In this document: piece by piece, positions 14,709 to 47,720 of the stretch
Layout: each line of letters starts with the position of its first letter
Position numbering within the stretch: position 1 is the stretch's first letter
DNA from: a virus
Lineage: Duplodnaviria; Heunggongvirae; Uroviricota; Caudoviricetes
Strand: one strand, 5' to 3'
DNA length: 64,000 bases
IMG/VR virus record: IMGVR_UViG_3300005831_000057
Program-made: the position numbers and the translations under genes
Notes under the pieces: generated by a model
What the model saw: the letters and a program-made list of their open reading frames with translations, nothing else
Database searches by the model: none
Told to the model about the DNA's origin: nothing

Positions 14709-15494
14709 CTACTTATAAAACTTCTGTCCACTCGAATTTACATATGTACAGTTCAAACTATTCCACCATCTCATGTCTCCGACTAGACTTGGCTCACAAA
14801 AATATACTGCTCCATTCGTGAAGTCTTTTGAATATAAAGCTTTATTAACAGCATTCTTAGTAGATTCTGTAACTTTTACGCTATAATATCTACCATCTGA
14901 AATTGGAGAAAACTGACTTCGTTGAAACACAACACCTTTTATAGTGTCTGGAAATTGATTGCTTTTAATCCTATTCAATACAACAAAACATATTGACATT
15001 TTTGCATTAATATTGCCACCAGTTTCTTCGGCTTCAACTATCCTATATAGAATATTCAGATCGTTTTGTGAAAATTTCCAACCATTACTGTTACTCTCCT
15101 TTTTAACAACCCTCTTAGACTTTTTAATTACTTTTTTCTTAACTGGTTTAGCGGTAGCATGTACTTTATGACTTCTTACAATCTTTGGCTTTTTAACAAC
15201 CTTGCTCTTTCTTACTACTGGAGTATGGGTTTTAGTTACCACATTTTTAACTATTTTCTTTACCACTAAACTTTTTGTGGGGGCTGGCAATGAATCAGAA
15301 TCTTCGCTACCCTCCTTGTTGTCTTTTTTTTCGATACCTAAGCTTTTATGTTCTGCTGACATTAATACTTTATCAGTTTTTACGAACTTTGTATTAGAAC
15401 GAGTACTTGATTCAGAATAACAAATCATTGGTGTAGATAATACTCCAACTAAAACAGTTAACGCAAAGGTACGACTTAGTCTCCTCTTTTTCAT
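14709..15494 (-). CDS. Secreted SleB/CwlJ-like cell wall hydrolase (Hydrolase_2 domain) with a Lys-rich linker
   Basis: Signal peptide (MKKRRLSRTFALTVLVGVLS), a lysine/valine-rich low-complexity linker, and C-terminal IVEAEETGG...VVLNR...VVFQRSQFSP motifs of the SleB cortex-lytic family. Confidence 0.65.
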   Translation of the reverse strand: MKKRRLSRTFALTVLVGVLSTPMICYSESSTRSNTKFVKTDKVLMSAEHKSLGIEKKDNKEGSEDSDSLPAPTKSLVVKKIVKNVVTKTHTPVVRKSKVVKKPKIVRSHKVHATAKPVKKKVIKKSKRVVKKESNSNGWKFSQNDLNILYRIVEAEETGGNINAKMSICFVVLNRIKSNQFPDTIKGVVFQRSQFSPISDGRYYSVKVTESTKNAVNKALYSKDFTNGAVYFCEPSLVGDMRWWNSLNCTYVNSSGQKFYK

Positions 15495-15695: not shown

Positions 15696-16019
15696 TTATT
15701 CCTCCTCGGTTACAATACTTATTTTGTTAGATATAATGTTGTCCATTATTTCCTTTCCGATTTCTTGTATTGTGAACCTTGTATTAATAATAACATAGAT
15801 ATTGCATAATGTCAATAGTATTTTTGAAATTTTTACAATATCTTCTATAAAAAATATAACATCGGTGTCATTAGCGTTGGAATTAAATGTTGCAATTTTA
15901 GTATCTGACGATATAATATCTTTAGACAAGTCTAATTCGTCTACATAAAATCCGTCTCTTAGGCTTAAAAATATAATATACTCTTTATTGGTTAGATAAA
16001 TACTTTTGGCAAACATCAC
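15696..16019 (-). CDS. Hypothetical protein
   Basis: 107 aa ORF whose start overlaps the stop of the upstream gene. Confidence 0.3.
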   Translation of the reverse strand: MMFAKSIYLTNKEYIIFLSLRDGFYVDELDLSKDIISSDTKIATFNSNANDTDVIFFIEDIVKISKILLTLCNIYVIINTRFTIQEIGKEIMDNIISNKISIVTEEE

Positions 16020-17137
16020 TTAATCCCTTTGATGGTAGTATATAAATCATCGTACGATTCACATCTTATCCCATCCCAATCGCTATTAAATGCATATTTC
16101 TTACCAAAACAAATATCAACATCTGCGTTAGAAGTCTTAAGATTAGAACCAAGATCGTCTATAAAAATACCATTCATCATATTTATAGAAGATTTATCCT
16201 TGTATTTGTTCTCGTCAAGTAAAATTAGATTTGCATATGGAAAAATTCTTCCTAGTAATTCCGACTTACCTTTTAGATTTTTGTCAGTACCAATAGTTAC
16301 AAAATTAATTTCATATCCATCGTCGTACAACTTGTTAATTACCTCTTCTGAATTTTCAAAGAAATGCATATTTTCTTTATTAAAAAACCTGTCATCGTTG
16401 AAATATCCTTTTATGGTTTCCATTTTACAATTTACTTCTTCAAAATCCCAACTCACAACAATATTAGGATCAATATCTGTATCAAAGTCTTTGTTGTACA
16501 TTCCAACTACAGTTTTAAATGTATCGTTTAATGTTCCGTCAAAGTCAAAGAATAGTCTTTTTAGATATCTTTTATCTGTAGACCACTTATCGATTATCTC
16601 GTCTAGCGTAACTGGAGCGTAATCATAAAACATGCATCCAACATTATAAGCATTACACTCATATCCGTTATTATTTAAATCCCTAATCATCTTAAGAGCT
16701 ACATCGTGCTCTGGGGTTTTGTGAAAATGTCCATATAGATGAATTCCACCATGATAATGACCGTCATAAAATGGCATTAAGTAATGTGAAAGCACAACTT
16801 TCTTTGTTTCTCCATTGTTTAACGTAACAGATATTTTGGAATAGTCTGAAATCCCATTGAAAGCTTTTTTGTTAGTTCCATTGCTTAGGAATTTATCATG
16901 ATTTCCAGTTACTATATTAATCTGTCCGTTAAGTTTCTTTAAAAGACTAGGGACATCGTCGTGTCTCCAAATCATATCGCCAAGAACATATACAACTCCA
17001 TCTTTTGGCACTTTTTCATTCCATCGTCTTATAAGCTCGTTTTCCATTTCTTCTGTGTCTCTGAATGGTCTGTCATCGAATCCTATACAGTTATAATGTC
17101 CTATGTGTAAATCTGATGTAAAAAAAACTTTGCTCAT
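16016..17137 (-). CDS. Calcineurin-like metallophosphoesterase fused to a HAD-superfamily (DxDGT) phosphatase/nucleotidase domain
   Basis: MPE motifs DLHIGH, GDM, GNHD, GHFH in the N-terminal half. C-terminal FFDFDGTLNDT (HAD motif I) and IFIDD (motif IV). Confidence 0.65.
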   Translation of the reverse strand: MSKVFFTSDLHIGHYNCIGFDDRPFRDTEEMENELIRRWNEKVPKDGVVYVLGDMIWRHDDVPSLLKKLNGQINIVTGNHDKFLSNGTNKKAFNGISDYSKISVTLNNGETKKVVLSHYLMPFYDGHYHGGIHLYGHFHKTPEHDVALKMIRDLNNNGYECNAYNVGCMFYDYAPVTLDEIIDKWSTDKRYLKRLFFDFDGTLNDTFKTVVGMYNKDFDTDIDPNIVVSWDFEEVNCKMETIKGYFNDDRFFNKENMHFFENSEEVINKLYDDGYEINFVTIGTDKNLKGKSELLGRIFPYANLILLDENKYKDKSSINMMNGIFIDDLGSNLKTSNADVDICFGKKYAFNSDWDGIRCESYDDLYTTIKGIK

Positions 17138-17140
17138 CTA

Positions 17141-18115
17141 CTAATCATCCTCCTCTTCTGGAAATGTTGCTATGTCATCCCAATTGCTTGTATCAAATGG
17201 TATATCGTCACATATGAAATTAGACATCCGTTCGCTAAGCGTTGTCGGTGTTATAGCACGATGAATAGCATCAATAGCACTATCGAGTCCAACGACGTGA
17301 GTCGGACTATTATATGTCGCACCTGCCAACGAATCTACTACATTGCCATTATTAAACATAATTGTACGAACATCATTAGTTGTAATATTAGAATCAACAT
17401 AACCACTGCCATAATTACTGCTGAAATAACTATTAAAACTACTAGGCATATTATATAGTATATACTCTTCAAACTTAGACATATTAGTGTATTCTTTTGG
17501 AGACCTAGGTAATGTAGGTATACAGTTATATATCTTATTACTTAAATTTGAAAGTCTTCCATTCATATATTCTGCACAGTCAACAACGTTATTAATAACA
17601 GTATCTATTAAAATATCTACATGGCATGAATTGATGTTATAAAAATCATAATTATCAGCTGTCATCCTTCTTTCAATTTCTTCTTGAGAATCTCCTCTTG
17701 ACAACAATCTAATTTTGGTCTCTTGGTCGGTACATTTAACTAATACAGACGCAAAATTTATACTAGTATTATTAGATACCGCACGAAGACCGTCTGGGTT
17801 AAGAATCAAAACATTATTCATTCCAGAAAGCATCTTGGTCAAAGGAGTTCCATAAAAGCATTTTCCAAACGAAGCATCATAACTTGTAGTTTCTAAAAAC
17901 ACACCTTTGTGATTCATATTATCAAATTCTTCTTCCGATACAAAATGATAATCAACTCCGTCAACCTCACCTTCTCGCATAGGTCTTGTCGTACAAGTAA
18001 CCACTTTGTTCCATCCAAACTTGACCAACTCATTGACGATGGTCGTCTTACCGCTTCCACTTCTGCCGATTATTACACAGTTAAAGTTATTATTTTCACT
18101 TAAATTTCTAGGCAT
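17141..18115 (-). CDS. Guanylate-kinase-like nucleoside monophosphate kinase with a C-terminal extension
   Basis: P-loop GRSGSGKTT and the guanylate kinase signature TTRPMREGEVDGVDYHFVSEEEF. Confidence 0.7.
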   Translation of the reverse strand: MPRNLSENNNFNCVIIGRSGSGKTTIVNELVKFGWNKVVTCTTRPMREGEVDGVDYHFVSEEEFDNMNHKGVFLETTSYDASFGKCFYGTPLTKMLSGMNNVLILNPDGLRAVSNNTSINFASVLVKCTDQETKIRLLSRGDSQEEIERRMTADNYDFYNINSCHVDILIDTVINNVVDCAEYMNGRLSNLSNKIYNCIPTLPRSPKEYTNMSKFEEYILYNMPSSFNSYFSSNYGSGYVDSNITTNDVRTIMFNNGNVVDSLAGATYNSPTHVVGLDSAIDAIHRAITPTTLSERMSNFICDDIPFDTSNWDDIATFPEEEDD

Positions 18116-18843: not shown

Positions 18844-18872
18844 ATTATACATACTCTTCTTAGTATTGTCAA
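18844..18872 (-). promoter_or_regulatory. Consensus sigma-A promoter (minus strand): TTGACA-N17-TATAAT
   Basis: Reverse complement reads TTGACAatactaagaagagtatgTATAAT. Confidence 0.55.
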
Positions 18873-19250: not shown

Positions 19251-19892
19251 TTAATCCCTTTCGTCTTTATTTTTGTATTCAAATCTTATACTCGAAATTT
19301 CGTTATCGTCCATAATAATAGCACATAATCTACCACCAAATACACATCCGTTATCAATACATATACAATTGTACTTAATATTAACTAAATTGTCTTCTAC
19401 TGTAGTATGCCCATGCATGGTAAGACATTTGCGCTTAGAATCTACATTTCTACTCCATAAAATATCATCTTTTGTATTTTCTTCTATATCTGGTTTTGAT
19501 AGTGACGAGTGACACCAAACAATATCGCCATCTTTGAAATATAAAGGTAGACTTTTAATCGTGTGATACATCGCTTTATAACTCTGTCCGTTTTTATAAA
19601 AACTTCTCTTCGTTTTGTTACCGCCATTTGAAATCCAAGACTTATCCACTTCGTTTACATAATCCAAAAACATCTGTTCGTGATTTCCTAACAGCCATAT
19701 AAATTTGTCACTTTTGGCAATAATTCTAGTATTTATGATAAAATTAAAAAGTTCATAACTATTACGTCCTCTGTCTATTACATCTCCAGTAATTATAAGT
19801 CTATCTTGTTGTGGATCATAATTTATTTTATCTAACAATGTCATAAGTGTATAATAACATCCATGTATATCTCCGACTGTTATAGTTCTCAT
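19251..19892 (-). CDS. PPP-family (lambda-phosphatase-like) metallophosphoesterase
   Basis: GDIHGCYY, GDVIDRG and GNHE motifs. This is the same fold as the phosphoesterase module of bacterial Pnkp. Confidence 0.75.
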   Translation of the reverse strand: MRTITVGDIHGCYYTLMTLLDKINYDPQQDRLIITGDVIDRGRNSYELFNFIINTRIIAKSDKFIWLLGNHEQMFLDYVNEVDKSWISNGGNKTKRSFYKNGQSYKAMYHTIKSLPLYFKDGDIVWCHSSLSKPDIEENTKDDILWSRNVDSKRKCLTMHGHTTVEDNLVNIKYNCICIDNGCVFGGRLCAIIMDDNEISSIRFEYKNKDERD

Positions 19893-19908
19893 ATTCTCTC
19901 CTTTTATT

Positions 19909-20835
19909 TTAATGCGAATTTACATCAGCGTCGTGTAATGTCATAAGTTGTCTATATAAATCATAGCCTAACATATCTTGATACTTTTTATACGTTTTTT
20001 TATACTTCCAAGAATAAGGCATCATGTGTAAATTTACCAATGTAGATATATTAATTATTTCGCTATCAGAATATCCATCACGCAATTGCAAAATATCATA
20101 AGCTCCTACATTTTCATGGTTGTAATAGTGAGCATCACTGTCAACTTCTCCTAAATGATTCAAAAATGTCTTAGTAAATGGTTTTCCGATATCATGCAAC
20201 TTCGCAGCAACCACGACTAAATCTGAATCTTTTAGTAAATCACGATTAGCGTACTTATTAATTACTTGCCATGACGTGTTGTACATATGCTTTCCAAGCG
20301 TGTCTTTGTGGTGTGAGTTTTCTTGGTCAAATCTGCATATCTCTTCTGTAAGAAAGTCTTTAATAGTTTTAGGCTTAAACGATATAGGCGTATGTATTTT
20401 AATATCATTCCACCCTTCATACATAGATGGAGTATTCCAATTAGTATACATCTTTTTTATTACATATTCTGGTACAATTCTATCTCTATTATTGTTATTT
20501 TTGATGCATTCTTCATAAGTATTATAGGCGATATGACATTCTTTGAATACCTCTAAATTATTTTTTCTAGCAAAAGAATCTAACTCTAACAAGAAAGCCA
20601 TTCTCTTTTTTCTACAAATATTAGTTGCGTCATATACCACGTCTTTGCCATCTAATAATGTATTAAAAGTTCTTTCTTTCATAATCCTGAACACTTCTGT
20701 AGCATCTTTCTGCACCCTTTCGTCGCCATATAATTCTTCTCTTATACTATCTGACGAATGAACGATTCCAGTAGCAGATTTAGCCAATGTAGACTTTCCA
20801 CTAGCTGGCAATCCTACTAACATAGCAAATTTCAT
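19909..20835 (-). CDS. Polynucleotide-kinase-like P-loop kinase fused to an HD phosphohydrolase domain
   Basis: AAGGAGG RBS before MKFAMLVGLPASGKST (Walker A, T4 Pnkp-like N-terminus). C-terminal H...LHDIGK HD motif. Confidence 0.6.
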   Translation of the reverse strand: MKFAMLVGLPASGKSTLAKSATGIVHSSDSIREELYGDERVQKDATEVFRIMKERTFNTLLDGKDVVYDATNICRKKRMAFLLELDSFARKNNLEVFKECHIAYNTYEECIKNNNNRDRIVPEYVIKKMYTNWNTPSMYEGWNDIKIHTPISFKPKTIKDFLTEEICRFDQENSHHKDTLGKHMYNTSWQVINKYANRDLLKDSDLVVVAAKLHDIGKPFTKTFLNHLGEVDSDAHYYNHENVGAYDILQLRDGYSDSEIINISTLVNLHMMPYSWKYKKTYKKYQDMLGYDLYRQLMTLHDADVNSH

Positions 20836-20837
20836 AA

Positions 20838-21821
20838 TCAATCCTCCTTTAAACATCTTTTTATTTCAATAGCTATCCCTTTTATTACAGGTACGCATAC
20901 AGAGTTTCCTGCTTGTTTATACAATCTAGCATCACTCATATCATCTGGTAAAACATAATATTCAGGAAATCCTTGTGCATTAAAACATTCTCTTGGTGTC
21001 ATTTTTCTAATACCATGCTTAGTCTTTATTAAGCAAACGTTATGTCCGCCTTCCCCTTGATTTGCCGTAAGAGTTGGCACAACTCCTGATCGATTTTTTC
21101 TTACATACTTCCTTCTCCACTGATATATTGCTGGATTTTCTGGTTCATCATTTTTCATCCCATCCACTAAAGCATCGTATATTTCGCCTTTATACTTACC
21201 TAATGTATAATAATACTTTTCGTCAACCTTGTTATTAAAATCGATAATATCTTTTACTGTAGTTGTCAAATGGGTAGCAAGCGGCCAATGAAATTTTTCA
21301 TAATCTTCTTCATCTCTAAATGCCACAATGTAAATTCTTTCTCTGTTCTGTGCTATGTTTCCATAATTCATCGCATTTAATACTTGATAAGTGTATTTAT
21401 ATCCAAGTATATCTAGTTGTTCACAAATCACTCTGAATGTATTTCCGTTATCATGTCCAACAAGATTTTTTACATTTTCAAAAAAAGCAAATCTTGGTTT
21501 CTTATCCTCTAGTATGCGTGTTAATTCAAAAAACAGCTCTCCACGCCCTTTTTCATCTTCAAATCCTTTTCTGTATCCCGCAATAGAAAAAGACTGACAT
21601 GGAAATCCAGCTAGCATAATATCAAAATCAGGTATTTCTTCACTTTTTACATCGCATATATCTCTCATGTCTACTTTTATATCAAAATTAAGTTCAAATG
21701 TCTTTGTTGGGTATAGATCGATTTCATTTGCATAAATAGTTTTAAAAATTTCTGCGCTTTCAAATCCACAGTCGATACCTCCTACGCCAGCAAAAAAAGA
21801 TGCACACCTTAACATAATCAA
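20838..21821 (-). CDS. DNA (cytosine-5)-methyltransferase
   Basis: FAGVGG (motif I), GFPCQ (IV), ENV (VI), GNSV (X). Confidence 0.85.
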   Translation of the reverse strand: MIMLRCASFFAGVGGIDCGFESAEIFKTIYANEIDLYPTKTFELNFDIKVDMRDICDVKSEEIPDFDIMLAGFPCQSFSIAGYRKGFEDEKGRGELFFELTRILEDKKPRFAFFENVKNLVGHDNGNTFRVICEQLDILGYKYTYQVLNAMNYGNIAQNRERIYIVAFRDEEDYEKFHWPLATHLTTTVKDIIDFNNKVDEKYYYTLGKYKGEIYDALVDGMKNDEPENPAIYQWRRKYVRKNRSGVVPTLTANQGEGGHNVCLIKTKHGIRKMTPRECFNAQGFPEYYVLPDDMSDARLYKQAGNSVCVPVIKGIAIEIKRCLKED

Positions 21822-23095
21822 TCCTCCTTTAAATACTTTTTTATTTCAGACATCTTTATGTATTTTGGTGACTTGGTGTTTTCGTTTTGCTTTATATAAT
21901 TAACGCTCTTCCCAAGATGTCTTCTTATTACATATTTTGCAATGCTTTTATCTACATTATTTCTTACATAAATCATAAAATCTTTAGTGTTGTCAGTGCT
22001 GCGAATTGCATCGGTGATACTTCTATCCACATCTTCGTTTATTGTATAAAGATATCTAAACACAATGTCTGATATATATCCAACTCTATGCTTATACGCC
22101 GCTGGTACTTTACTTATAAAATCGTCAAAATTGCCATCTCCTATACATTTAATTATAAGATTTACCGAAGATGACTTGTCTAGTATCTTGTGGATATTAA
22201 CATAATCGTCATACTTTATCTTAACCTTAAATCCATCAATGTCTAGCACGAATCCTTCTGCTTCATTTGATCTTACATCTTTTAATGAATTAAAGACTTT
22301 ATCTAATGTAGTATCAAAGAGTCTAGTAGACTTAACACTATATTGAGTTGCGAAACCTATTACGTCTTCATAAGAAAATTCTATTCCATTATTATTGTCT
22401 CTTATTCCGATTAAATACATTCCTTCGTATTCTTTCTTATAAACAACTACATGTTGATCTTTTAATGATATATATTCAAATATAAACGTAAGACCAATGT
22501 TGCTTTTAATCATCTTCAAATAATTGTTGTCATTTTCAATCATACTGTAAGCGTCTTCAAGTCGCCAAGAAGTCTTCCTATTTATGCTCATACTGCTTGC
22601 CATAACTAAATTATCATTATACCAAGTTGCAGTCATCATAGATCCGTCAAGCTTATCCGAGAATTCTACACTGTTAGCGTTTTCTATCATAGCTGAAATA
22701 TTCTCATAACTAGTTTCGTCGCTCTCGTTGAGATTCCTAAATTTTCTAAATGGACAAAGTACAATTTCGTCAGATATTAAGTTTATAACTACTCCTCTAC
22801 ACTCTTTGTAAAATCCTCCATAAGAATCCCAGAATTTATCATACTTATTTACTTCTTCTGAATTATTGAATACACTTGAATAATTTCCGTATCTTATAAT
22901 CGCCAAATTATGATGATATGAAATTTGCAAATCTCTAAACAAGCAACGATATTCTTCTAAACCAAGTCTCTCTATCCAGTTCTCTATTATGGTATTACCT
23001 TCTAATGCTTTAAAATCAAAAGCATAGCCAAACCTTTTTACATATTCATCTTTTATTTCTACTACTTTATTTAAAACTGCGTTCCAAGACTTCAT
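21818..23095 (-). CDS. RNA ligase (Rnl1-like covalent nucleotidyltransferase)
   Basis: Motif I SDKLDGS (KxDG), motif III FEYIS, motif IV EGFVL, motif V KVKIK. Embedded with the kinase and phosphatase genes. Confidence 0.6.
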   Translation of the reverse strand: MKSWNAVLNKVVEIKDEYVKRFGYAFDFKALEGNTIIENWIERLGLEEYRCLFRDLQISYHHNLAIIRYGNYSSVFNNSEEVNKYDKFWDSYGGFYKECRGVVINLISDEIVLCPFRKFRNLNESDETSYENISAMIENANSVEFSDKLDGSMMTATWYNDNLVMASSMSINRKTSWRLEDAYSMIENDNNYLKMIKSNIGLTFIFEYISLKDQHVVVYKKEYEGMYLIGIRDNNNGIEFSYEDVIGFATQYSVKSTRLFDTTLDKVFNSLKDVRSNEAEGFVLDIDGFKVKIKYDDYVNIHKILDKSSSVNLIIKCIGDGNFDDFISKVPAAYKHRVGYISDIVFRYLYTINEDVDRSITDAIRSTDNTKDFMIYVRNNVDKSIAKYVIRRHLGKSVNYIKQNENTKSPKYIKMSEIKKYLKED

Positions 23096-23123: not shown

Positions 23124-23152
23124 ATTGTATCACATCACCGATGGTATGTCAA
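23124..23152 (-). promoter_or_regulatory. Sigma-A promoter with extended -10 (minus strand), driving the ligase-Dcm-kinase-phosphatase block
   Basis: Reverse complement reads AAAAAAAA..GTGTTGACAtaccatcggtgatgTGaTACAAT. Confidence 0.5.
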
Positions 23153-23217
23153 CACTTTATTCAAAAAAAAGATAAGAAAGCCAATTAAAACTTCCTCATC
23201 TTCTATTTATACACTTA

Positions 23218-28366: not shown

Positions 28367-28806
28367 AAGTTATCTGTTTTAATCATATATATAACTGCGT
28401 CAACACGATTGTCTTCGAGTTCTTTACGTATAATATCTATAAGGAAATTATATTTATCCTTATCTTCTAAGTAAAACGCAATAGAACATATGTTTCTGCG
28501 TGCCCAATCCTTAATATTACTTATATTTTTGCGAATAAATTCAATATTTCCGTCATAATCATCATGTCCAATATATGTCAAGGCAGAACTTACAAAAACT
28601 CTGTCTGAAAATGTCCAATCATTACGCATTGATAAGAAATTTATACTAGATAGAAATCTTGCATAATCAGACTTGGCTGTCTTGTTAATACTAAAACACT
28701 CTTCTACTATTTTGTTATTCATTCCTTCTCCATCACGTCCGCTTATAAAAAAATCCACACGTCTTTCTTCTTTCTTGTATTCTTCAATATCTAATACTTC
28801 TATCAT
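28363..28806 (-). CDS. Hypothetical soluble protein of the NTase cassette
   Basis: 147 aa. ATGA overlaps with both neighbours. Confidence 0.35.
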   Translation of the reverse strand: MIEVLDIEEYKKEERRVDFFISGRDGEGMNNKIVEECFSINKTAKSDYARFLSSINFLSMRNDWTFSDRVFVSSALTYIGHDDYDGNIEFIRKNISNIKDWARRNICSIAFYLEDKDKYNFLIDIIRKELEDNRVDAVIYMIKTDNL

Positions 28807-29888
28807 ACTTTCACTCCTTTGTTATTTTTTATATTTCCAACTACAATTCTTTCGTTTACCGACATTGTAAAATCTCTTATTTTCTTATAGTCGGGCTTAT
28901 CTGACAACTCTGTGTTTTTCTTTGCGTATTCTAACTTTTGTTCGTAATCTGCTATTATGTCGAAGAATTCTGTCACAACTTGCTTATTATCGTCTAAATA
29001 TTTACCATTTCTTATATCCATTAATAGATCATGCTCAGCGTCTCTATAAGTTACTATCTTTTGTTTCTCAAGTATATCTAAGCACATAATATATAATCTT
29101 AATAGGTGGCACATATGCTTTCCAAGTTTATCATGTTTCGCAGCGTTTTCGTTACGCTTACCTAAAACTCCATATTCTTTTACAATCGACTGCATTTCTG
29201 ACATCATCGACTTATAATCTCTTAATGGATAATTCTTAAAGTTTACATCCATAAAAATTTCAGTATCATATTCTTCTTGTGCTGACTCGCCAATATACAA
29301 ATTGATATTATCATCATCGTTGCTAAAATACCTATCTTTAAAATAATATTTGGCATTATTCAGTGTATTTAATATATGCTGCTCTCTTTCAGAATGAGAT
29401 ACGTCACGTTTAGATTTGTTAGTAAGTCGTCTAAGCTGTTGATTGGCATATCCTCCAAATGAATGAATTGCTAGTTTTGATAAGAATAAATCGCTATTAT
29501 CTAAAAGTTCTTGTCCAATATCGCTAACATGTAAATAATGTTCTTTGTTACATCCTAGAATTTCAATAGTGTTTGGATTGCAATTGGTTAAAAGTGTGAT
29601 TATTTTGTTAAATGAATAAATTGTAGTGTCAGTTTCGTTGTTAATAAATTGGTTAAAGTTACTATTTGTCAAGATATCTTCTTTTGAGTTTAAAGCAATT
29701 CCTCTTACATCTAGGTCACTGTCTTCGTTGTTAGTGCCATAAGCATAACTTCCACCAAGTGTTAGTAATATTATATTATCTTTTAATCTTGGTTCATCTC
29801 TAAGAAAGCTATATTTATCCGAATTTACTAACTGTTTGATTTCTTCTAAATTCATGACTCGCTCCTTTCTAAAACACATATTAACCAT
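28803..29888 (-). CDS. Pol-beta-superfamily nucleotidyltransferase (GS...DxD) with a helical C-terminal domain
   Basis: LGGSYAYGTNNEDSDLDVRG matches the minimal NTase G[GS]x(9-13)DxD signature. The true start may be the internal MNLEEI. Confidence 0.55.
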   Translation of the reverse strand: MVNMCFRKERVMNLEEIKQLVNSDKYSFLRDEPRLKDNIILLTLGGSYAYGTNNEDSDLDVRGIALNSKEDILTNSNFNQFINNETDTTIYSFNKIITLLTNCNPNTIEILGCNKEHYLHVSDIGQELLDNSDLFLSKLAIHSFGGYANQQLRRLTNKSKRDVSHSEREQHILNTLNNAKYYFKDRYFSNDDDNINLYIGESAQEEYDTEIFMDVNFKNYPLRDYKSMMSEMQSIVKEYGVLGKRNENAAKHDKLGKHMCHLLRLYIMCLDILEKQKIVTYRDAEHDLLMDIRNGKYLDDNKQVVTEFFDIIADYEQKLEYAKKNTELSDKPDYKKIRDFTMSVNERIVVGNIKNNKGVKV

Positions 29889-30636
29889 TATTCCAAACTT
29901 CTATTTTAGTGTCTATACACGCAATGTGATTATTAATTCTTTTATTTGATATGTTGTAATAATTCCTATCTAGTTCGAATCCTATGTATTGTCTATTAGT
30001 ATTTATACATGCTATAGCGGTACTCCCGCCCCCTATGCAATTATCCATCACAACTTCGCCGTCGTTTGTATACGTTTTAATTAGGTATTCTAATAGAGCT
30101 ACTGGTTTTTGTGTTGGATGTACCGTATTTTTATCACGCTTAAATTCTATAACCGACAAAGGATATCTTTCACCTTCACTTTTTGAAATATGTCCACCGC
30201 AGCTTTTATCGTAATTATAACTCTCGCTTCCGCTTCCTTGTTTGCAAATATACGGTTTAAATCCCAATCTCATTTGTGGGTTATATGTAGGAGTTTTCTT
30301 GTAAAATACTAATATATTCTCATGATTTTTTAGTGGCATCTTTTTAGCGTTAAGAAATCCAGTTCCATTCTCTTTTTGCCATATCCATTCATACTTTAGG
30401 TTTTTTATGTTGCTACATCCCAATACTTTGTCAAATGGAGATTGTGCAAATAGTACGATAGCTCCATCGTCTTTTATTACTCTATTATAAGCGTTCCACA
30501 ACTCTTGTAAATCGATAACAGTATCCCACTTGTTTCTAGTAGTTCCATATGGCAAATCACATAAAATCATATCAATTGATTTGTCATTTAATTTTTTCAT
30601 TCCTTCTATGCAATCTTCATTATATATTTCATTCAT
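29881..30636 (-). CDS. Beta-class DNA methyltransferase (N6-adenine or N4-cytosine)
   Basis: Motif IV ILCDLPYG near the N-terminus and motif I DNCIGGGSTAIAC near the C-terminus, the permuted beta-class order. Confidence 0.8.
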   Translation of the reverse strand: MNEIYNEDCIEGMKKLNDKSIDMILCDLPYGTTRNKWDTVIDLQELWNAYNRVIKDDGAIVLFAQSPFDKVLGCSNIKNLKYEWIWQKENGTGFLNAKKMPLKNHENILVFYKKTPTYNPQMRLGFKPYICKQGSGSESYNYDKSCGGHISKSEGERYPLSVIEFKRDKNTVHPTQKPVALLEYLIKTYTNDGEVVMDNCIGGGSTAIACINTNRQYIGFELDRNYYNISNKRINNHIACIDTKIEVWNNG

Positions 30637-33024: not shown

Positions 33025-36000
33025 CTAAATCGCCACCTTTCTATATTTTGTAATCCACATTTCTTTAGTGCCTACGACCGAAACATAACTATTGGTAGCT
33101 TCATCAAACGTACTCTGTGGCTTAGTTTCATATCCGTCAACATATATAACATCGCCTATTTCTAGTTTGCTTCTGCTAAAGCTTCTCTTATTTATTTTAA
33201 CCATCATAGATTTTCCGTTGGATAAAGAATATATGCTTAGTTTTGGTGAATATTTTGTGTCTACACCAGTTATTAATATCATTTTAGCATACTTCAAGTC
33301 TTTAATATCCACATATCCCATAAACTCCATCTGATAGTCTATTAGCTCTCTTAAAGTAATAGATTTTATAGCTGGTATCTTGGATATAATTTTTTTTATC
33401 AACTTACCCACATCTACATTACTATAAGTCTTTTCAGAAACTTTGTTGCACAATTTAGCCATCTCTGATTCCGAAATTCCTAATTTATCAAGTTCGCTTT
33501 TCTTAAATTGAGATCTGTCACATACGCTATTAAATATGTCAACTATTTTTAACAATCTATTAACATCTCCAAACTCGTCGAAGAAGTTTATCTTTATAAG
33601 TATCGATAATTGTTTGCTGTTTAGCGACGTGCTATTTTTTATACTCCATAACAAATCCACAAAATCATCAAATTTGCAATCTCTTAAATTATAAAGTTCG
33701 GTACAAGATAGTTCATTCATATACTTTACCGATCCAATTCCCCTATATACAACCTTATTGCTTATCATATATTTGTAGTTGGAATGTCTGAACTTTATTC
33801 CATTTATAGAAATTTCTTTCTGTTTAGCCAATAATTCTCCACTCACAATATCTTCTTCTGTATCGGAATTGTTAAGATATGCCATTACAAATAATTCTGG
33901 ATGGTAAAATCTTAGCATAGCACATAAATATCCAATCATGGAATATCCTACTGTATGGTTATATCCGAACTGATAAGCACTAGAACTTTCTATTATGTCT
34001 AAAAATTCCTTAGCTTCCTTTTCAGCAATATGTCTTGGTTGAGTAGATTTTGAACAATATCCTTCTAGTATAGACGGCAGTGCATCGTTAAGTCTATCTA
34101 CTTGTTTTCTTCCTATCGCACGTCTTATATTGTCAGCTTCACTTCCAGATAGTCCACATATCTCTATTAGAAATCTACTCGTATCTTCTTGGAAAGCTAA
34201 ATATCCTCTACTTCCTTTAAGCAATTCGTCTATTAATGGCGATGGATTTTTGTTTATTATTCCACTAGCAAGCCGATCTCTGTATATTTTCCCAGACGGT
34301 CTTATCGCAGCGTTAGTAAGTGAAATATGAGATATCTCTGTAGGTTTTATTCTTTGAAGCATATCAAAAGCAAATTTACTTTCGAACTGAAAAATTCCAA
34401 CAGCATATTTTATCATATCATCCCATACTTTCATATCGCTCCAGTCTATCTCATAAGATTTAGGATATTTCTTGCCAAGACATCTATATACATCTTTTAT
34501 TATCTCGATATTTTTAAGCCCAAGAATATCATACTTTACCAAACTAATCTCGTGTATTTCGTCCATATTTATAGACATACATCTTTTATTATCTTCCCAA
34601 AAAGTGCCATAGTTGTCATTCAACGTCGTCGGAGAAACAACTATTCCAGCTGGATGTATTCCTTTAGAAACAACTACGTTTACCATTCCTTTATAGTAGT
34701 AAAATATGTCGCTATATTTTTCAATACATTTATCCTTGTCGGTAGAAAACTCTTCTTTCACCTTTTTGGCAAAATCTAAACTTAAATTGTATGGAATTTT
34801 AACATTTTTGTCTTTAAGGCTATATCCATTATCTAACATCCACTTATTTCTAAATCCTCTTACAATCCCATCTATAGCAGCTTTATCTCCCATTGTGCCA
34901 GTAACAAGTATGTATGACGTATATTCAATTCCGAATCTATCTATTATATATTCATAAACTTTACATCTATCTGATGGAGCAAAATCTAAATCAATATCTC
35001 CGATCTCTTTTCTGTCTTTATTGGCAAATCTTGAGAAAACAGTATTCCATCTTATAGGATCTACGTCTGTGATATCTGTAATAAATGCTATAATAGAACC
35101 TCCTACAGAACCTCTGCAAAATCCAATTGGTATATCGTTTTCCCAACACCAACAACATAACTCAGACATAAATAATATAAATCCAATCATTCCAATTTCT
35201 TTAAATACTGCCAACTCTTCTTTAATGCCATTTATATAATCTTCATATTTTTCACTAACCAAATGTCCGTTATTATACTTGGTTTTTAGCATATCATTTA
35301 TTCTAGTTTCCAATATACAATATTCATCTTCGTACAACTTGGGATATTTAAAGCTTAAATCTAACTCGAAACCATCAACGCTATCAGCCATAACATTTGT
35401 ATTTTCTACAGCCAATTCATAAACTTCTTTATCTAATGAACCTTGAAGCCTAAACATATCTAAGACTTCTTCGTAGGATTTACATGTCAGATCAAAATCG
35501 TCTTCGTTGGAAAATAACATCCCTTTAGAATATTGAAGCATAGTTCTACACTCTGCTTTATAACCATCTAATGAATGAGTGTCAGTTCCAGCTATCAACG
35601 GTTTATTTGTTATCTTGGATAGTTCGTACAGATGACTATTATATTCAATCTGTTCCTTGCAATTAGTGTGAGGTTGAATTTCGTAGTAATCATATGCATA
35701 AATAAGTCTGCTATAATAATTATTAATTCTGTTAACTCTCGACGCTGCTTCTTCGTTTAAATTTTCATTTTTTGCAAGTTCTTCTTTTAATTTTATAAGT
35801 TTATTAAGAGGAGATGCCAAGCAGGCTGAAATTTTTATTACGTTGTCAGATATATTCAAGAACTCGTCAAATGTGAGTCTAGGTTTGTAGTGTACATGAT
35901 CCTTTTGTGTAGACAGATCTATTAGCGAATTAACCTCTTTAAAGCCTTCTGGATATGTCTTAGCTATCAATATACTATGATAATTATCTCTTATATTTTC

Positions 36001-36336
36001 ATCTAAAGTTTCAGTAAGATATATTTCAACTCCATGAATATATTTTATTGGTTTGAGCTCCAAAACTGAAACATCGCTAATTCCAGAAAGTATTTTATCC
36101 AGTCCATTCTTCTCTACATATATTGGACTTTTTAAACTTCCGCCATAAACTTTATATTGTGTCGATTCGCAGTACATTTTTTTATCAACCCAATCGTAGG
36201 TATTACCATGTTCGGTGAAGCATATTGACGTATGTCCTAGCTCTTTGGCTCTATGAATATAATCTTTGTAATTAGTAGTACTATCAAGTAAACTTAATTC
36301 GGTATGCACATGAAACCATGTAATATTTTTGTCCAT
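33025..36336 (-). CDS. DNA polymerase III alpha subunit (PHP-domain C-family polymerase, DnaE-like)
   Basis: N-terminal PHP HVHTELSLLD...HGN. Catalytic-region GFCRGSVGGS...IGDIDLDFAPSDR motif. 1103 aa. Confidence 0.85.
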   Translation of the reverse strand: MDKNITWFHVHTELSLLDSTTNYKDYIHRAKELGHTSICFTEHGNTYDWVDKKMYCESTQYKVYGGSLKSPIYVEKNGLDKILSGISDVSVLELKPIKYIHGVEIYLTETLDENIRDNYHSILIAKTYPEGFKEVNSLIDLSTQKDHVHYKPRLTFDEFLNISDNVIKISACLASPLNKLIKLKEELAKNENLNEEAASRVNRINNYYSRLIYAYDYYEIQPHTNCKEQIEYNSHLYELSKITNKPLIAGTDTHSLDGYKAECRTMLQYSKGMLFSNEDDFDLTCKSYEEVLDMFRLQGSLDKEVYELAVENTNVMADSVDGFELDLSFKYPKLYEDEYCILETRINDMLKTKYNNGHLVSEKYEDYINGIKEELAVFKEIGMIGFILFMSELCCWCWENDIPIGFCRGSVGGSIIAFITDITDVDPIRWNTVFSRFANKDRKEIGDIDLDFAPSDRCKVYEYIIDRFGIEYTSYILVTGTMGDKAAIDGIVRGFRNKWMLDNGYSLKDKNVKIPYNLSLDFAKKVKEEFSTDKDKCIEKYSDIFYYYKGMVNVVVSKGIHPAGIVVSPTTLNDNYGTFWEDNKRCMSINMDEIHEISLVKYDILGLKNIEIIKDVYRCLGKKYPKSYEIDWSDMKVWDDMIKYAVGIFQFESKFAFDMLQRIKPTEISHISLTNAAIRPSGKIYRDRLASGIINKNPSPLIDELLKGSRGYLAFQEDTSRFLIEICGLSGSEADNIRRAIGRKQVDRLNDALPSILEGYCSKSTQPRHIAEKEAKEFLDIIESSSAYQFGYNHTVGYSMIGYLCAMLRFYHPELFVMAYLNNSDTEEDIVSGELLAKQKEISINGIKFRHSNYKYMISNKVVYRGIGSVKYMNELSCTELYNLRDCKFDDFVDLLWSIKNSTSLNSKQLSILIKINFFDEFGDVNRLLKIVDIFNSVCDRSQFKKSELDKLGISESEMAKLCNKVSEKTYSNVDVGKLIKKIISKIPAIKSITLRELIDYQMEFMGYVDIKDLKYAKMILITGVDTKYSPKLSIYSLSNGKSMMVKINKRSFSRSKLEIGDVIYVDGYETKPQSTFDEATNSYVSVVGTKEMWITKYRKVAI

Positions 36337-40038: not shown

Positions 40039-41238
40039 TTATTCATTGTCAAAAATACATTCTAGCACTTTAGCCATTCTTGTAATCATCGGAACTACTA
40101 ATGCATTCCCCATGCAAAAATATCTCATTCTCTCCGTCATTCCAGTATTTGTCCAGTTATCGTCAAATCCATTTAGACGTTCAGATTCTAACGGCGTAAT
40201 TACTCTTAGTTTATTAGTGCTATTACACATTACTACGTGCGAACTTCTGTTGCAAGTACTTTCGCTAGTTAGCATAGTCCTACTAGGTCTGTCTAAGAAA
40301 TCTGGAAATGGCACTGCTCCTTCGGAATATATGTATTCATGACCAGTCTTCGAAATTCTATTTATCTTTTTAGAATTTTTAAGATATTCCCACTTAGATA
40401 TATTCTGTCCTAAGTAATACTTTTCGTCAACAACTTTTTCTAATACATCGCAAAGATTTATAGTGGTTTCTCTTTTTTCTAATACTTTAACTGTGTATAT
40501 TTCCCCGTCGCTCATATATCCCGCATTCTCAAATTCAAACATATAGTTGTCAGATACATTTTGTATATAATTATATTCTACAGTTGAATATTTTAATACC
40601 TCGCATTCACTTATTGGAAATGCTTTGCAAAAAAAACCATCCTTTGTAATTATATCTAACTTATCATCAATGTTCATCCTTTGTTTAAATTTAGTACTTG
40701 TTTTGTATGCAAATATAAATACTCTTCTCCTTCTTTGCGCTGCCCCATACGACGCTGCGTTTACAACTCGCCATTCTACGTCATATCCGAGTTTGGCAAA
40801 GCACGATAGTATTATTCCAAAATCCCTACCTCTTTGCGTTGAAGGTGATTTTAAAAGCCTATCTACATTTTCAAGCAATACAAACGGAGGACTTTTAGCT
40901 AATAATACATCCATTATAGACCACCATAGTACTCCTTTTTTACCTTTAATTCCTTCTTGACCATTCAAGCATCTGGCAACTGAATAATCTTGACATGGAA
41001 ATCCTCCTACTAATAAATTATGATTTGGAATATTTTCTTTATTTACTTCGTTTATATCTATATTTGTAAATTGATCAATATACCCATAATGTTTTAGATA
41101 ACAGTCGTGCGCCCACTGATTTTTTTTATTAGGTTCGTATTGATTAAACCACACAGTATCCCAGTCTTTATTTTGTCTTTCTAGTCCCAATCGAAATCCA
41201 CCCACACCAGCAAACAACTCGCAAACGGTCTTTTCCAT
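40039..41238 (-). CDS. DNA (cytosine-5)-methyltransferase (second copy)
   Basis: FAGVGG, GGFPCQDYS, ENV and QRRRRVF motifs. Confidence 0.85.
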   Translation of the reverse strand: MEKTVCELFAGVGGFRLGLERQNKDWDTVWFNQYEPNKKNQWAHDCYLKHYGYIDQFTNIDINEVNKENIPNHNLLVGGFPCQDYSVARCLNGQEGIKGKKGVLWWSIMDVLLAKSPPFVLLENVDRLLKSPSTQRGRDFGIILSCFAKLGYDVEWRVVNAASYGAAQRRRRVFIFAYKTSTKFKQRMNIDDKLDIITKDGFFCKAFPISECEVLKYSTVEYNYIQNVSDNYMFEFENAGYMSDGEIYTVKVLEKRETTINLCDVLEKVVDEKYYLGQNISKWEYLKNSKKINRISKTGHEYIYSEGAVPFPDFLDRPSRTMLTSESTCNRSSHVVMCNSTNKLRVITPLESERLNGFDDNWTNTGMTERMRYFCMGNALVVPMITRMAKVLECIFDNE

Positions 41239-46997: not shown

Positions 46998-47720
46998 TTA
47001 AATTATTACTAAGTTATTTATATAATCTCTATTCTTTGTGAATATTGGTATTTCGTTATCGATCACCCATTCGCCAAGTCCGTTTCTTATGGCGCAAGAT
47101 CCTCTTTTGAAACTAGTCTCGACATTATTCCAATTAATATCCTTCTCCATCAACATATCTTGTACCTCCGACGTATTCTTAAATTGTAAAGACTTGTGAG
47201 AAAATACCGACTGAGCCAATCCATTTATACTATTCCTTGTGGCATCTTGCTGTCGCCAAACTAAGCAGTTAGCAGCGTCTCCTTTTGGTATGTTGAAAAC
47301 TCTTGAGTCAAATGTAGCACTCTTAAGTTTTTCATATTTATCTATATTGCAACCGTCTATTCTACTACATATACTCTTATTAAATTCCAAAGTAGCAATA
47401 GAAGCTGAAACGCTTACCATCTTTTGGATATTATTACTAAACCAAGGCTGAGTTTCAAGTCTAAAATAATCCACTATCAATAGCGTTATTTCGTCAGACT
47501 GTGTATACCCAAGCACGCAACCTTGTATTTTCTTGCACAATTGTAGCATCGTATCTTGCATCGCACCAGATAAAACTGTGTCGTATGGACGATCTATTCC
47601 TTTGGCTAAAGTGTGAAACGCACAGCCGTCAAGTCTTATAATGACTGGAGTTCGTCTCATTAATTCTCCATTACTAACTCTTTCATAAGCCTTCATTCTA
47701 TCTCCTAGCGAATCTACCAT
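46998..47720 (-). CDS. Thg1-like protein (tRNA-His guanylyltransferase family 3'-5' polymerase, TLP)
   Basis: KAYERV, VIIRLDGCAFHTL, GYTQSDEITLL, VWRQQDATRNSINGL and the C-terminal block align with the Thg1/TLP hallmarks (KFEYVR, VVVRLDGRNFHRF, AYGQSDEYSF, SWRQADCHINNL). Confidence 0.85.
   Translation of the reverse strand: MVDSLGDRMKAYERVSNGELMRRTPVIIRLDGCAFHTLAKGIDRPYDTVLSGAMQDTMLQLCKKIQGCVLGYTQSDEITLLIVDYFRLETQPWFSNNIQKMVSVSASIATLEFNKSICSRIDGCNIDKYEKLKSATFDSRVFNIPKGDAANCLVWRQQDATRNSINGLAQSVFSHKSLQFKNTSEVQDMLMEKDINWNNVETSFKRGSCAIRNGLGEWVIDNEIPIFTKNRDYINNLVII

Follow-up and report, generated by a model that had tools for sequence, protein, structure and literature searches.

A guanylate-type kinase gene followed by a metallophosphoesterase–NT5C fusion gene in a large phage contig: a probable nucleotide-metabolism operon

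Phages of the T4 and T5 type carry their own dNMP kinase (T4 gp1 and the T5 enzyme, PF21448), and T5 also encodes the 5′-deoxyribonucleotidase Dmp; these enzymes redirect the nucleotides released in the infected cell, although the T5 dNMP kinase and Dmp are encoded by unlinked genes that are expressed at different times. Among phosphatases of the NT5C family (PF06941), one phage enzyme, Dtm of PBS1, acts on dTMP in preference to dUMP, and PBS-type infection moreover induces a dedicated dUMP kinase (PMC12697855). In Firmicutes, (p)ppGpp targets the cellular guanylate kinase Gmk (PMC11953324), and mutation of the host gmk gene leads to phage resistance after adsorption (PMC6532042). Phosphoesterases of the COG4186 type are strongly enriched on human gut mobile elements (PMC2822762), and beyond this enrichment our literature search found nothing on the function of the aq_1665/COG4186 proteins.

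Here, we describe two adjoining genes, ORF2 and ORF1, in a window of ~64 kb (i.e., the whole stretch of DNA that was analysed) taken from a ~113-kb contig, whose features are collected in Table 1. The window DNA gave no megablast match among 50,697 phage records, and its source is best explained as a novel low-GC phage with a large genome. All three domains of the two proteins belong to known enzyme families, and the kinds of phage proteins are left unchanged. We consider that ORF2 and ORF1 probably constitute a translationally coupled auxiliary nucleotide-metabolism operon acting at the dNMP branch point.

Table 1. Location of the two genes, their domains and associated features in the window
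Feature	Position	Strand	Extent	Basis
Candidate promoter	18844..18872	(-)		TTGACA-17-TATAAT, 12/12 sigma-70 consensus, intergenic gap
ORF2	17141..18115	(-)	324 aa
Guanylate-kinase domain of ORF2	17525..18088	(-)	residues 10-197	PF00625, phrog_1815, PDB guanylate kinases
C-terminal extension of ORF2	17144..17524	(-)	residues 198-324, about 127-130 aa
ORF2/ORF1 junction	17135..17160	(-)		read directly from sequence
ORF1	16016..17137	(-)	373 aa
Metallophosphoesterase domain of ORF1, aq_1665/COG4186 type	16580..17137	(-)	residues 1-186	phrog_547, 1XM7
Inter-domain linker of ORF1	16559..16579	(-)	residues 187-193, STDKRYL	DNA read directly
NT5C-type HAD phosphatase domain of ORF1	16025..16558	(-)	residues 194-371	PF06941, 3BWV

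Domain identities and gene coupling

ORF2 is a guanylate-kinase-family protein. Its residues 13–160 match Pfam Guanylate_kin (PF00625; E 1.9e-17, 63.9 bits against a cutoff of 25.2), its kinase domain matches phrog_1815 (E 1.2e-38) and solved PDB guanylate kinases (E 1e-14 to 1e-13), and residues 10–197 are modelled by AF2 with pLDDT >90. The P-loop (G17RSGSGKTT25) fits GxxGxGK[ST], and residue-by-residue comparison with yeast GK, for which we take the GMP contacts in 1GKY to be S34, R38, R41, E44, Y50, E69, Y78 and S80, identified the GMP-site residues T40, R44, R47, E50, Y56, E75, Y88 and T90 as well as the lid arginines R136, R140 and R150; yeast D100 aligns ambiguously, with either N106 or D108. 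The intact P-loop and GMP site rule out that ORF2 is an inactive paralog. It should be noticed that ORF2 scores 87.4 bits with the NCBIfam equivalog of cellular Gmk (TIGR03263), below the cutoff of 160.45; judged by sequence, it is a member of the family and not an ortholog-level match to the housekeeping enzyme. Guanylate kinase (GK) homologs in isolate phages, almost all from Firmicutes phages, share 34–42% identity with ORF2, and other fusion partners in its GK clade are dCMP deaminase, dUTPase, thymidylate kinase and nucleoside deoxyribosyltransferase/SLOG domains. The neighbourhood of the guanylate kinase of Staphylococcus phage SEP9 was uninformative.

The C-terminal extension of ORF2 is rich in N, S, D and T, ends with an acidic tail (FPEEEDD), matches no family and none of the 228 phage loci fetched, and has no predictable fold (AF2 pLDDT ~40–50). 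Its sole homolog, P0125 (331 aa), aligns over the full length with 77% identity; Ka/Ks reaches 0.43 in the extension versus 0.12 in the kinase domain, and the extension is under purifying selection. The motif ‘DDIPF’ (residues 303–307) was considered as a mimic of the SSB C-terminal tip and rejected, being internal and replaced by NDISI in the only homolog.

ORF1 consists of an N-terminal metallophosphoesterase (MPE) and a C-terminal NT5C-type HAD phosphatase. For the MPE half, phrog_547 (‘phosphoesterase’) matches residues 1–191 (E 2.8e-38), profile comparison with the PDB retrieves 1XM7 (E 2.8e-15), and Foldseek finds 1xm7_A (E 2e-7, TM 0.67). All five metal-binding motifs tested (DxH, GD, GNH[DE], H and GHxH) are present (D9xH11, GD54, GN79H80D, H118 and GH137xH139), and the metal-binding residues D9/H11, D54, N79/H80, H118 and H137/H139 are invariant across 17 sequences. 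Note that Pfam Metallophos (PF00149), a precomputed match on most close MPE homologs, is not reported for ORF1 at E<=0.01, and the MPE assignment is made from the PHROG, profile-to-PDB and fold matches. MPE relatives are either stand-alone (~205 aa, with 50–58% identity to the ORF1 half) or fused to RelB-like or HTH domains. The neighbourhood of the MPE homolog in Eggerthella phage LE2-3 was uninformative.

For the second half, Pfam NT5C (PF06941) matches residues 195–369 (E 3.2e-13, 50.4 bits against a cutoff of 24.8), with HAD motif I (D198-F-D200-G-T), K291, K315, motif IV (D327-D328) and the aromatic xFF motif of a helical cap (R250FF), all invariant or near-invariant in 43 members of the NT5C clade. 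Against the PDB, the clade profile finds 3BWV (E 3e-15) and mouse cdN (2JAO; E 2.8e-4), and Foldseek on the AF2 model (pLDDT 94–98) gives TM 0.80–0.83 to 3BWV and 0.67 to human mitochondrial deoxyribonucleotidase. A T4 Pnkp-type HAD was rejected, with no such Pfam family at E<=0.01 and no Pnkp chain among the PDB profile matches at E<=1; a phosphoserine-type HAD was likewise rejected, since 1F5S reaches only E 0.29 versus 3e-15 for 3BWV, and SerB structures stand far below NT5C structures. This NT5C clade has one match among 50,697 GenBank phage records and is confined almost only to uncultivated phages.

The initial annotation had thus placed both reading frames correctly and had recognized the calcineurin-type MPE fused to a DxDGT HAD phosphatase, as well as the exact guanylate kinase signature of ORF2 (TTRPMREGEVDGVDYHF, residues 42–58). 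The E-values behind these domain assignments lie well outside chance expectation. For the HAD half, it had left a choice between a 5′-deoxynucleotidase-like enzyme, which sequence and fold support, and a T4 Pnkp phosphatase, which they do not; an extension of ORF2 does exist, although it covers about 127 aa (residues ~198–324) and not the ~140 aa first given.

The linker DNA of ORF1 shows neither an internal start codon, a stop remnant nor a ribosome-binding site, and the junction is in frame; the NT5C half must therefore be made only as a fusion. AF2 predicts two well-folded domains (pLDDT 88.6), with values <50 only at residues 187–190. At the upstream gene border, the last codons of ORF2 (GAAGAGGAGGATGAT) contain the GAGGAGG ribosome-binding site of ORF1, and the ORF2 stop TAG is followed by three bases and then by the ORF1 ATG, an arrangement that indicates translational coupling of the two genes. 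In a relative (L009), they overlap as ATGAGTAA, and the downstream peptide begins with MSKVFFTSDL, as in ORF1. Among 5.8 billion clustered proteins and 1.84 billion representatives, the MPE–NT5C architecture was found in this one protein only, MPE and NT5C being separate genes in all relatives.

Kinase–NT5C partnership across phages

Single-protein scans of IMG/VR retrieved no close relatives of ORF1 or ORF2, and the loci of relatives in IMG/VR were obtained through alignment-based scans. A GK-like gene lies immediately upstream of NT5C, often overlapping it, at 76 of the 80 NT5C-anchored loci (which represent 14–16 lineages at 70–90% identity), and at one further locus (L029) a T4-type DNMK kinase takes the place of GK. 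The association extends to fusions: in at least 10 representatives of 50%-identity clusters, GK and NT5C form a single protein, and three clusters join NT5C to a T4-type dNMP kinase (PF21448), two of them with the full N-terminal kinase domain and the third with only a C-terminal fragment of it. Moreover, five loci show reversed gene order with adjacency kept. Since the kinase can be swapped for one of another family, we argue that the role of this partner is dNMP phosphorylation. Some NT5C-linked kinases in relatives are devoid of the guanine-reading residues (Y50H, E69A).

Many uncultivated phages, the majority of them from gut-type samples, show this pairing of kinase and nucleotidase, of which we found no description in the searchable literature. 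What is new is an NT5C clade nearly absent from cultured phages and paired with a (d)NMP kinase by adjacency, fusion and kinase replacement. The seemingly antagonistic kinase and phosphatase at the dNMP node point to a selective gate on the nucleotides entering phage DNA, and the pairing bears on how phages of anaerobic, gut-type communities supply or edit their dNTPs.

Possible roles of the operon

The sequence data establish which domains are present, that their catalytic residues are intact, that the genes are coupled and that the kinase–NT5C partnership is conserved; the substrates, the direction of flux and the roles of the MPE and of the ORF2 extension are what we infer. As a nucleotide-pool operon, its residues suggest that ORF2 would be a catalytically competent guanylate-type (d)NMP kinase converting (d)GMP to (d)GDP, which would give the phage an activity independent of the host enzyme that (p)ppGpp shuts down in Firmicutes. 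The NT5C half would be a Mg2+-dependent 5′(3′)-deoxyribonucleotidase stripping the phosphate from particular (d)NMPs. The kinase would pass desired nucleotides on towards the triphosphates, and unwanted ones would be drained to nucleosides by the nucleotidase; if human cdN/mdN and PBS1 Dtm are a guide, the drained nucleotides are most likely pyrimidine dNMPs (e.g., dUMP or dTMP). Kinase and nucleotidase working on the same monophosphate would be futile, and the pool model therefore needs distinct specificities. The MPE may be a lineage-specific addition that most plausibly supplies substrates or widens their range, for example by converting cyclic or diester phosphates into monoesters, which would then be hydrolysed by the HAD domain.

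The candidate promoter would drive three small ORFs, ORF2, ORF1 and a 107-aa ORF (15696–16019); its sole basis is agreement with the consensus, and promoter-like sites are in total no more numerous in this region than in shuffles. NrdD is located 6 kb from the operon and not adjacent to it, and ThyX and dUTPase, the usual companions of the cassette, are missing from the 64-kb window. At the 68 GK-anchored loci, the genes found nearby are NrdD (37 loci), NT5C (24), dUTPase (21), PolIII-alpha (18) and ThyX (16). The kinase and the HAD half, with the NrdD, ThyX and dUTPase neighbours of their relatives, accordingly bear out the nucleotide-pool module of the initial annotation. The MPE half departs from this pattern: the nearest MPE relatives follow Pnk-HD genes and not nucleotide-pool cassettes, so that the reading as a bifunctional nucleotide phosphatase is half established.

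These MPE relatives (55–56% identity), located directly downstream of full-length Pnk-HD homologs at 7 loci, raise the alternative, unlikely in our view, that the operon is the distal part of a nucleic-acid end-repair island ordered as Rnl1 ligase, Pnk-HD, ApaH-like MPE, then GK and MPE–NT5C. Here, MPE–NT5C would heal RNA or DNA ends and not act on free nucleotides, working as a 2′,3′-cyclic phosphodiesterase and 3′-phosphatase comparable to the phosphatase modules of T4 and bacterial Pnkp. NT5C enzymes accept 3′-phosphates, and a kinase together with a HAD domain is the architecture of T4 Pnkp, both of which count for end repair. Pnk-HD occurs within 8 kb at 9 of the 80 MPE-anchored loci and an ApaH-like MPE at 12, NT5C is beside the MPE at none of them, and one locus (L146) reads DNA ligase - GK - [ApaH-MPE::Rnl1 fusion] - MPE. 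In the window itself, Rnl1, Pnk-HD and an ApaH-like MPE lie 1–6 kb upstream of the operon on the same strand, with RlaP and a Thg1-like protein elsewhere. However, the real Pnkp-like parts of the window are Pnk-HD and the ApaH-like MPE, as separate genes at 19251–20856; the HAD half is of NT5C type with no detectable Pnkp-type match; and ORF2 keeps the complete GMP pocket, including phosphate-binding arginines that a 5′-OH polynucleotide kinase would not need. In addition, the perfect consensus promoter and the three small ORFs lie between the repair genes and the operon, and GK and NT5C neighbourhoods contain mostly NrdD, ThyX and dUTPase, RNA-repair genes being found at 2 of the 68 GK loci (Pnk-HD in one, Rnl1 in one) and at none of the 80 NT5C-anchored loci.

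A role in counter-defence or in rescue of the nucleotide pool appears quite unlikely. The MPE would open immune signalling nucleotides (cyclic di-/oligonucleotides, 2′,3′-cNMPs), NT5C would destroy the products, and the kinase would restore guanine nucleotides depleted or blocked by the host via (p)ppGpp or dGTPase-type defences. In temperate elements, close MPE homologs are indeed found in the first lytic operon beside cI/Cro-like repressors, where as many as three MPE paralogs occur, as do RelB-like or HTH fusions, a position typical of host-takeover genes, and the enrichment of COG4186 on human gut mobile elements (PMC2822762), the targeting of Gmk by (p)ppGpp (PMC11953324) and the post-adsorption arrest of phage by host gmk mutation (PMC6532042) are in line with it. 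Nevertheless, no substrate is known for any member of this MPE family (1XM7 is labelled ‘unknown function’), and the NT5C and GK partners lie in replication and nucleotide modules and not in early anti-defence regions. A PADLOC scan returned no defence or anti-defence family and only a weak generic P-loop match, on which a role as a defence system was also rejected.

The kinase and NT5C pair might also be a widespread, undescribed device by which phages edit their deoxynucleotide pool at the level of the monophosphates, which we regard as very unlikely. The nucleotidase would remove one canonical dNMP and the kinase would advance another or a replacement, comparable to PBS1 Dtm and the dUMP kinase. 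The support cited for it is adjacency at ~77 of the 80 NT5C-anchored loci and fusions in at least 13 clusters with two unrelated kinase families. If true, uncultivated phages of a large clade, to which this one might belong, would have partly non-canonical DNA or a re-balanced base composition, and the added MPE would extend the action to cyclic or diester substrates.

For this phage, it is highly improbable that the nucleotidase keeps a canonical nucleotide out, in the manner of PBS1 Dtm and dTMP, while the kinase serves its replacement in non-canonical DNA. Dtm, from a dU-DNA phage, is also a PF06941 enzyme, and a dUMP kinase is induced in PBS-type infection (PMC12697855); the absence of thymidylate synthase and dUTPase from the 64-kb window and the loss of guanine-reading residues in some relatives are consistent with such a scheme. 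By contrast, ORF2 keeps the canonical guanine pocket, and most relatives have ThyX and dUTPase beside the cassette, i.e., normal dTTP synthesis. Compared with PBS1-type dU-DNA phages, the window has the PF06941 domain, and ThyX, ThyA, dUTPase and a dCTP/dCMP deaminase were not found in its 64 kb. The search for hydroxymethylase, PurZ and deazaguanine genes was also negative over the 64 kb, in agreement with what the initial annotation had noticed for deazaguanine and hydroxymethylation genes, and a link to the modified-base pathways that it had mentioned is not supported. The only base-modification genes of the window are three DNA methyltransferases, which together with two ArdA proteins suggest ordinary methylation and anti-restriction as DNA protection.

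Finally, it is hardly credible that errors of assembly or sequencing united two neighbouring genes into MPE–NT5C, even though the architecture is known from one protein and its domains are separate in relatives, because the 373-aa product appears in identical form on two contigs, the in-frame junction has a short ordinary linker with no remnant signals, both domains fold well in AF2, and the upstream GK-extension-to-MPE junction recurs in an independent relative diverged to Ks ~0.5.

Comparison with described systems

Cellular Gmk (yeast Guk1, PDB 1GKY/1EX6) has its fold and its P-loop, GMP-binding and lid residues in common with ORF2, and the same fold and residues occur in the stand-alone annotated ‘guanylate kinases’ of Staphylococcus phages SEP9 and 6ec. 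Unlike these kinases, ORF2 bears a ~127-aa C-terminal extension seen in one other sequence only, and, in contrast to the SEP9 copy, its gene is coupled to that of a nucleotidase. Human cdN/mdN, S. epidermidis 3BWV and PBS1 Dtm share the Pfam family, the HAD motifs and the cap motif with the NT5C half of ORF1; they differ from it by the MPE fused to its N-terminus, and from its clade by the systematic partnership with a (d)NMP kinase. The aq_1665/COG4186 MPEs (PDB 1XM7, PHROG 547) resemble the MPE half in motifs, size and fold, whereas they are stand-alone or joined to RelB-like or HTH domains and not to NT5C. In this respect, the fusion ties a common family to a nucleotide phosphatase and provides a hypothesis for the substrate class of this family.

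T4 Pnkp (a kinase with a DxDxT HAD) and bacterial Pnkp (a kinase with an MPE) recall ORF2 plus ORF1, and the operon adjoins an Rnl1-type ligase, as a further likeness to Pnkp systems; however, neither the ORF2 kinase nor the ORF1 HAD falls within the Pnkp families. As in the case of T4 gp1, the T5 dNMP kinase and T5 Dmp, a predicted dNMP kinase is here encoded by a phage together with a predicted dNMP phosphatase, and DNMK–NT5C fusions occur among relatives, whereas the kinase of this operon is of GK type and belongs to a different family from the T4 and T5 enzymes.

The kinase gene and the fusion gene

Both open reading frames were found on the minus strand exactly where the initial annotation had placed them. 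As had been proposed, the upstream one, ORF2, encodes a guanylate kinase (GK)-family protein, since residues 13-160 match Pfam Guanylate_kin (E 1.9e-17, 63.9 bits for a cutoff of 25.2), ORF2 matches PHROG 1815 'guanylate kinase' (E 1.2e-38) and solved guanylate kinases match its kinase domain (E ~1e-14). Alignment with yeast Guk1 revealed that the P-loop (G17RSGSGKTT25), all GMP-contact positions (T40, R44, R47, E50, Y56, E75, Y88 and T90, located through the yeast residue numbering of 1GKY) and the lid arginines R136, R140 and R150 are retained, therefore ORF2 is not a dead paralog with a mutated P-loop, an outcome that the initial annotation had considered. The C-terminal extension (residues ~198-324) is shared with a sole other sequence, P0125 (77% identity over the full length, on a 1.2-kb ENA contig). 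Comparison of the two proteins (Ks ~0.5) gave a Ka/Ks of 0.12 in the kinase part and of 0.43 in the extension, which is thus coding and constrained, though loosely; AlphaFold pLDDT is >90 for the kinase and ~40-50 for the extension. The 'DDIPF' string of the extension looks like an SSB tail, a resemblance that was rejected because the string is not conserved.

ORF1 joins a metallophosphoesterase (MPE) to a 5'(3')-deoxyribonucleotidase-type HAD domain (NT5C, PF06941). Its N-terminal half (residues 1-186) matches PHROG 547 'phosphoesterase' (E 2.8e-38) and shares 50-58% identity with hundreds of stand-alone ~205-aa proteins, whose profile matches PDB 1XM7 (Aquifex aq_1665, E 2.8e-15); five of five metallophosphoesterase motifs are invariant in this half and its homologs. 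The C-terminal half (residues 194-371) matches Pfam NT5C (E 3.2e-13) and carries the HAD catalytic residues (nucleophile and acid D198 and D200, lysines and DD) along with the aromatic cap motif. While the NT5C clade profile matched PDB 3BWV (deoxyribonucleotidase-like) at E 3e-15 and the cytosolic/mitochondrial 5'(3')-deoxyribonucleotidases more weakly, it reached phosphoserine phosphatase only at E 0.29; a phosphoserine-type enzyme is thus set aside, and the suggested T4 Pnkp-phosphatase is unsupported. The AlphaFold model (pLDDT 88.6, disorder confined to residues 187-190) gave Foldseek TM values of 0.80-0.83 with 3BWV and 0.67 with both 1XM7 and human mdN.

The two genes are translationally coupled: a GAGGAGG ribosome-binding site at the end of ORF2 is followed by TAG, 3 nt and the ATG of ORF1. 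In L009, a diverged relative, the stop codon of the kinase gene overlaps the beginning of the next gene, whose peptide opens with MSKVFFTSDL just as ORF1 does.

Features of the window and of related phage loci (L-numbers)
Feature	Position	Strand	Remark
ORF1, MPE–NT5C fusion	16016-17137	-	373 aa
ORF2, guanylate-kinase-family protein	17141-18115	-	324 aa
Candidate promoter TTGACA-17-TATAAT	18844-18872	-	Perfect consensus; upstream of small ORFs before kinase
ApaH/bacterial-Pnkp-type metallophosphatase	19251-19892	-	
Pnk-HD	19909-20856	-	P-loop polynucleotide-kinase domain and CCA-enzyme-like HD domain
Rnl1-type RNA ligase	21818-23095	-	T4 Rnl1-type
11/12 extended -10 site	23124-23204	-	After terminator-like hairpin; upstream of RNA ligase
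RlaP nucleotidyltransferase; Thg1-like tRNA 3'-5' polymerase; DUF2828/DUF7788 protein	28803-29888; 44968-46473; 46998-47720	-	
Two C5-cytosine and one N6/N4 DNA methyltransferases, two ArdA	20838-21821, 29881-30636, 40039-41238, 59667-60182, 62561-63037	-	20838-21821 (C5) lies between ligase and Pnk-HD and overlaps both
Tyrosine integrase; PolIII-alpha; SleB-like hydrolase region	47732-48511; 33025-36336; 14709-15494	-	
Altered kinase, examples	L001 6750-7999; L010-L089		e.g. L012, L065
Split/interrupted NrdD	L010, L011, L033, L045, L051, L071, L073 and others		Downstream of NT5C
Pnk-HD and COG4186-type MPE pair	L098-L102, L116, L117		MPE at ~8000, Pnk-HD directly upstream
Closest stand-alone MPE homologs	L091-L096, e.g. 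L093 1063-6618		Gut-bacterial temperate elements

Pairing of the kinase and NT5C in other phages

In a sensitive search, the NT5C half matched 490 representative clusters (E<=0.001), and architectures were taken from the best 150 of them. At least 10 of these 150 have a GK-like domain at the N-terminus of a ~370-aa protein, and in three others NT5C is preceded by T4-type dNMP-kinase (DNMK, PF21448) sequence, i.e., the full kinase domain in P0284 and P0302 and solely its C-terminal fragment in P0250 (283 aa); within the best 150 of 490, MPE occurred only in the window's own protein. NT5C is also joined to a phage YunG-like domain (P0270), preceded by an HNH endonuclease segment (P0269) or, in a relative adjoining a split NrdD, joined to DUF1599 (PF07659; P0123, L008 3147-4064). 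As separate genes, NT5C directly follows and overlaps a GK-like gene in two of the three closest word-index matches (L006 and L007) and in MT835469.1, the sole GenBank phage record with an NT5C homolog. An alignment-based IMG/VR scan gave 80 NT5C loci (14-16 lineages at 70-90% identity), with a GK-like gene immediately upstream in 76 and a DNMK-type kinase filling this position in one (L029); ThyX-like genes precede NT5C in 30 of the loci, and NrdD follows it in 61. Around the kinase itself (68 anchored loci), we found NrdD (37), NT5C (24, five of them adjoining in reversed order), dUTPase (21), PolIII-alpha (18), ThyX (16), DNA ligase (14), and Pnk-HD and Rnl1 in one locus each. Further fusions of the GK clade involve dCMP deaminase, dUTPase, thymidylate kinase and deoxyribosyltransferase/SLOG domains, the SLOG fusion having already been noted (PMC9503650).

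Because of this recurrent adjacency and fusion, the kinase–nucleotidase partnership is, on comparative genomic grounds, a conserved phage nucleotide-metabolism cassette, and it appears undescribed in the searchable literature. The swapping of the GK-type enzyme for a dNMP kinase of another family argues that the partner's job would be dNMP phosphorylation. Two kinase subtypes stand beside NT5C: a canonical, window-like one (22/76 loci) and an altered one (54/76) which has lost guanine-reading residues (Y50H, E69A, Y78S/N, S80A, R146N), directly follows the ThyX-like gene in 26 of 54 loci, and may represent a GK-fold enzyme whose target has shifted to a different dNMP. Note that the ThyX-like RHR motif is RHV in L001. 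In many relatives, NrdD lies 3' of NT5C in two or three ORFs or with ~350-aa insertions, a pattern that introns, inteins or homing endonucleases could explain.

The metallophosphoesterase half and RNA-repair genes

NT5C was absent within 8 kb of MPE in all 80 MPE-anchored IMG/VR loci. The closest MPE relatives (55-56% identity) come right after a gene whose product matches the window's Pnk-HD over its full length; Pnk-HD occurs in 9 of the 80 loci and directly adjoins MPE in 7; this order is conserved in several IMG/VR phages. An ApaH-like MPE is nearby in 12/80, one locus reads ligase - GK - [ApaH-MPE::Rnl1] - MPE, and in L221 an ATP-dependent DNA ligase stands directly behind the Pnk-HD gene. 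This linkage points to a putative module for healing and sealing ends that differs from the Pnkp of T4 and of bacteria. Temperate elements house other close MPE homologs in their first lytic operon, next to cI/Cro-like repressors and with up to three MPE paralogs; COG4186 phosphoesterases are enriched on gut mobile elements (PMC2822762). In L091-L096, this first operon lies behind a large serine recombinase and a divergent pair of cI/Cro-like HTH genes, and it carries two or three metallophosphoesterase paralogs, some fused to RelB-like or HTH domains. From these neighbourhoods, the fusion unites an end-repair-affine MPE with a dNMP-kinase-affine NT5C.

The window, without a megablast match among 50,697 phage records, is a novel phage region of ~32% G+C. 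Plus-strand genes for tail, tape measure and lysin extend to ~13.7 kb, beyond which replication and accessory genes form a long block on the minus strand. A tyrosine integrase lies within this early/replication block, in a phage whose own genes include those for PolIII-alpha, a DnaB-type helicase and a primase. One cell-wall hydrolase is SleB-like and has a signal-like segment at its N-terminus, which hints at a spore-forming Firmicutes host.

Proposed role of the operon

The best-supported account, and probably the correct one, is a nucleotide-pool operon, in which ORF2 would supply (d)GMP kinase activity independently of the host enzyme and the NT5C half would be a deoxynucleotidase draining selected (d)NMPs. 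Host Gmk is inhibited by (p)ppGpp in Firmicutes (PMC11953324), and its mutation can block a phage post-adsorption (PMC6532042). The nucleotide-pool reading of the initial annotation thus holds for the kinase as well as the HAD half through the cassette, but the MPE half is ambiguous given its Pnk-HD neighbours, and we only infer that it would contribute. A role of the operon in end repair is unlikely: the same strand carries the Rnl1-type ligase, Pnk-HD and ApaH/Pnkp-type MPE a short way upstream, but a perfect candidate promoter and three small ORFs stand between these RNA-repair genes and the kinase, and both promoter-like sites suggest two separate transcription units. Counter-defence or pool rescue is quite unlikely, as no defence-system family matched in the window. 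Base replacement is very unlikely; thymidylate synthase, dUTPase, dCTP/dCMP deaminase, PurZ and deazaguanine genes were not found within the 64-kb window, a part of a ~113-kb contig, leaving the proposed modified-base link unsupported, and the methyltransferases and ArdA indicate a heavy investment in restriction evasion through ordinary methylation. Finally, an artefactual fusion is extremely improbable: at the DNA level, neither a stop or start codon nor a ribosome-binding site occurs at the MPE/NT5C junction, the model is folded and the identical 373-aa product occurs on two contigs, thus the annotated fusion looks real.

Altogether, every part belongs to an ordinary enzyme family, and the MPE–NT5C architecture is unique so far. 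The nearest characterised phage PF06941 member is Dtm of PBS1, a phosphatase preferring dTMP over dUMP (PMC12697855). In contrast to housekeeping Gmk, whose NCBIfam equivalog model gives ORF2 87 bits, under the threshold of 160, ORF2 is by its sequence a diverged phage branch of the guanylate kinase family.
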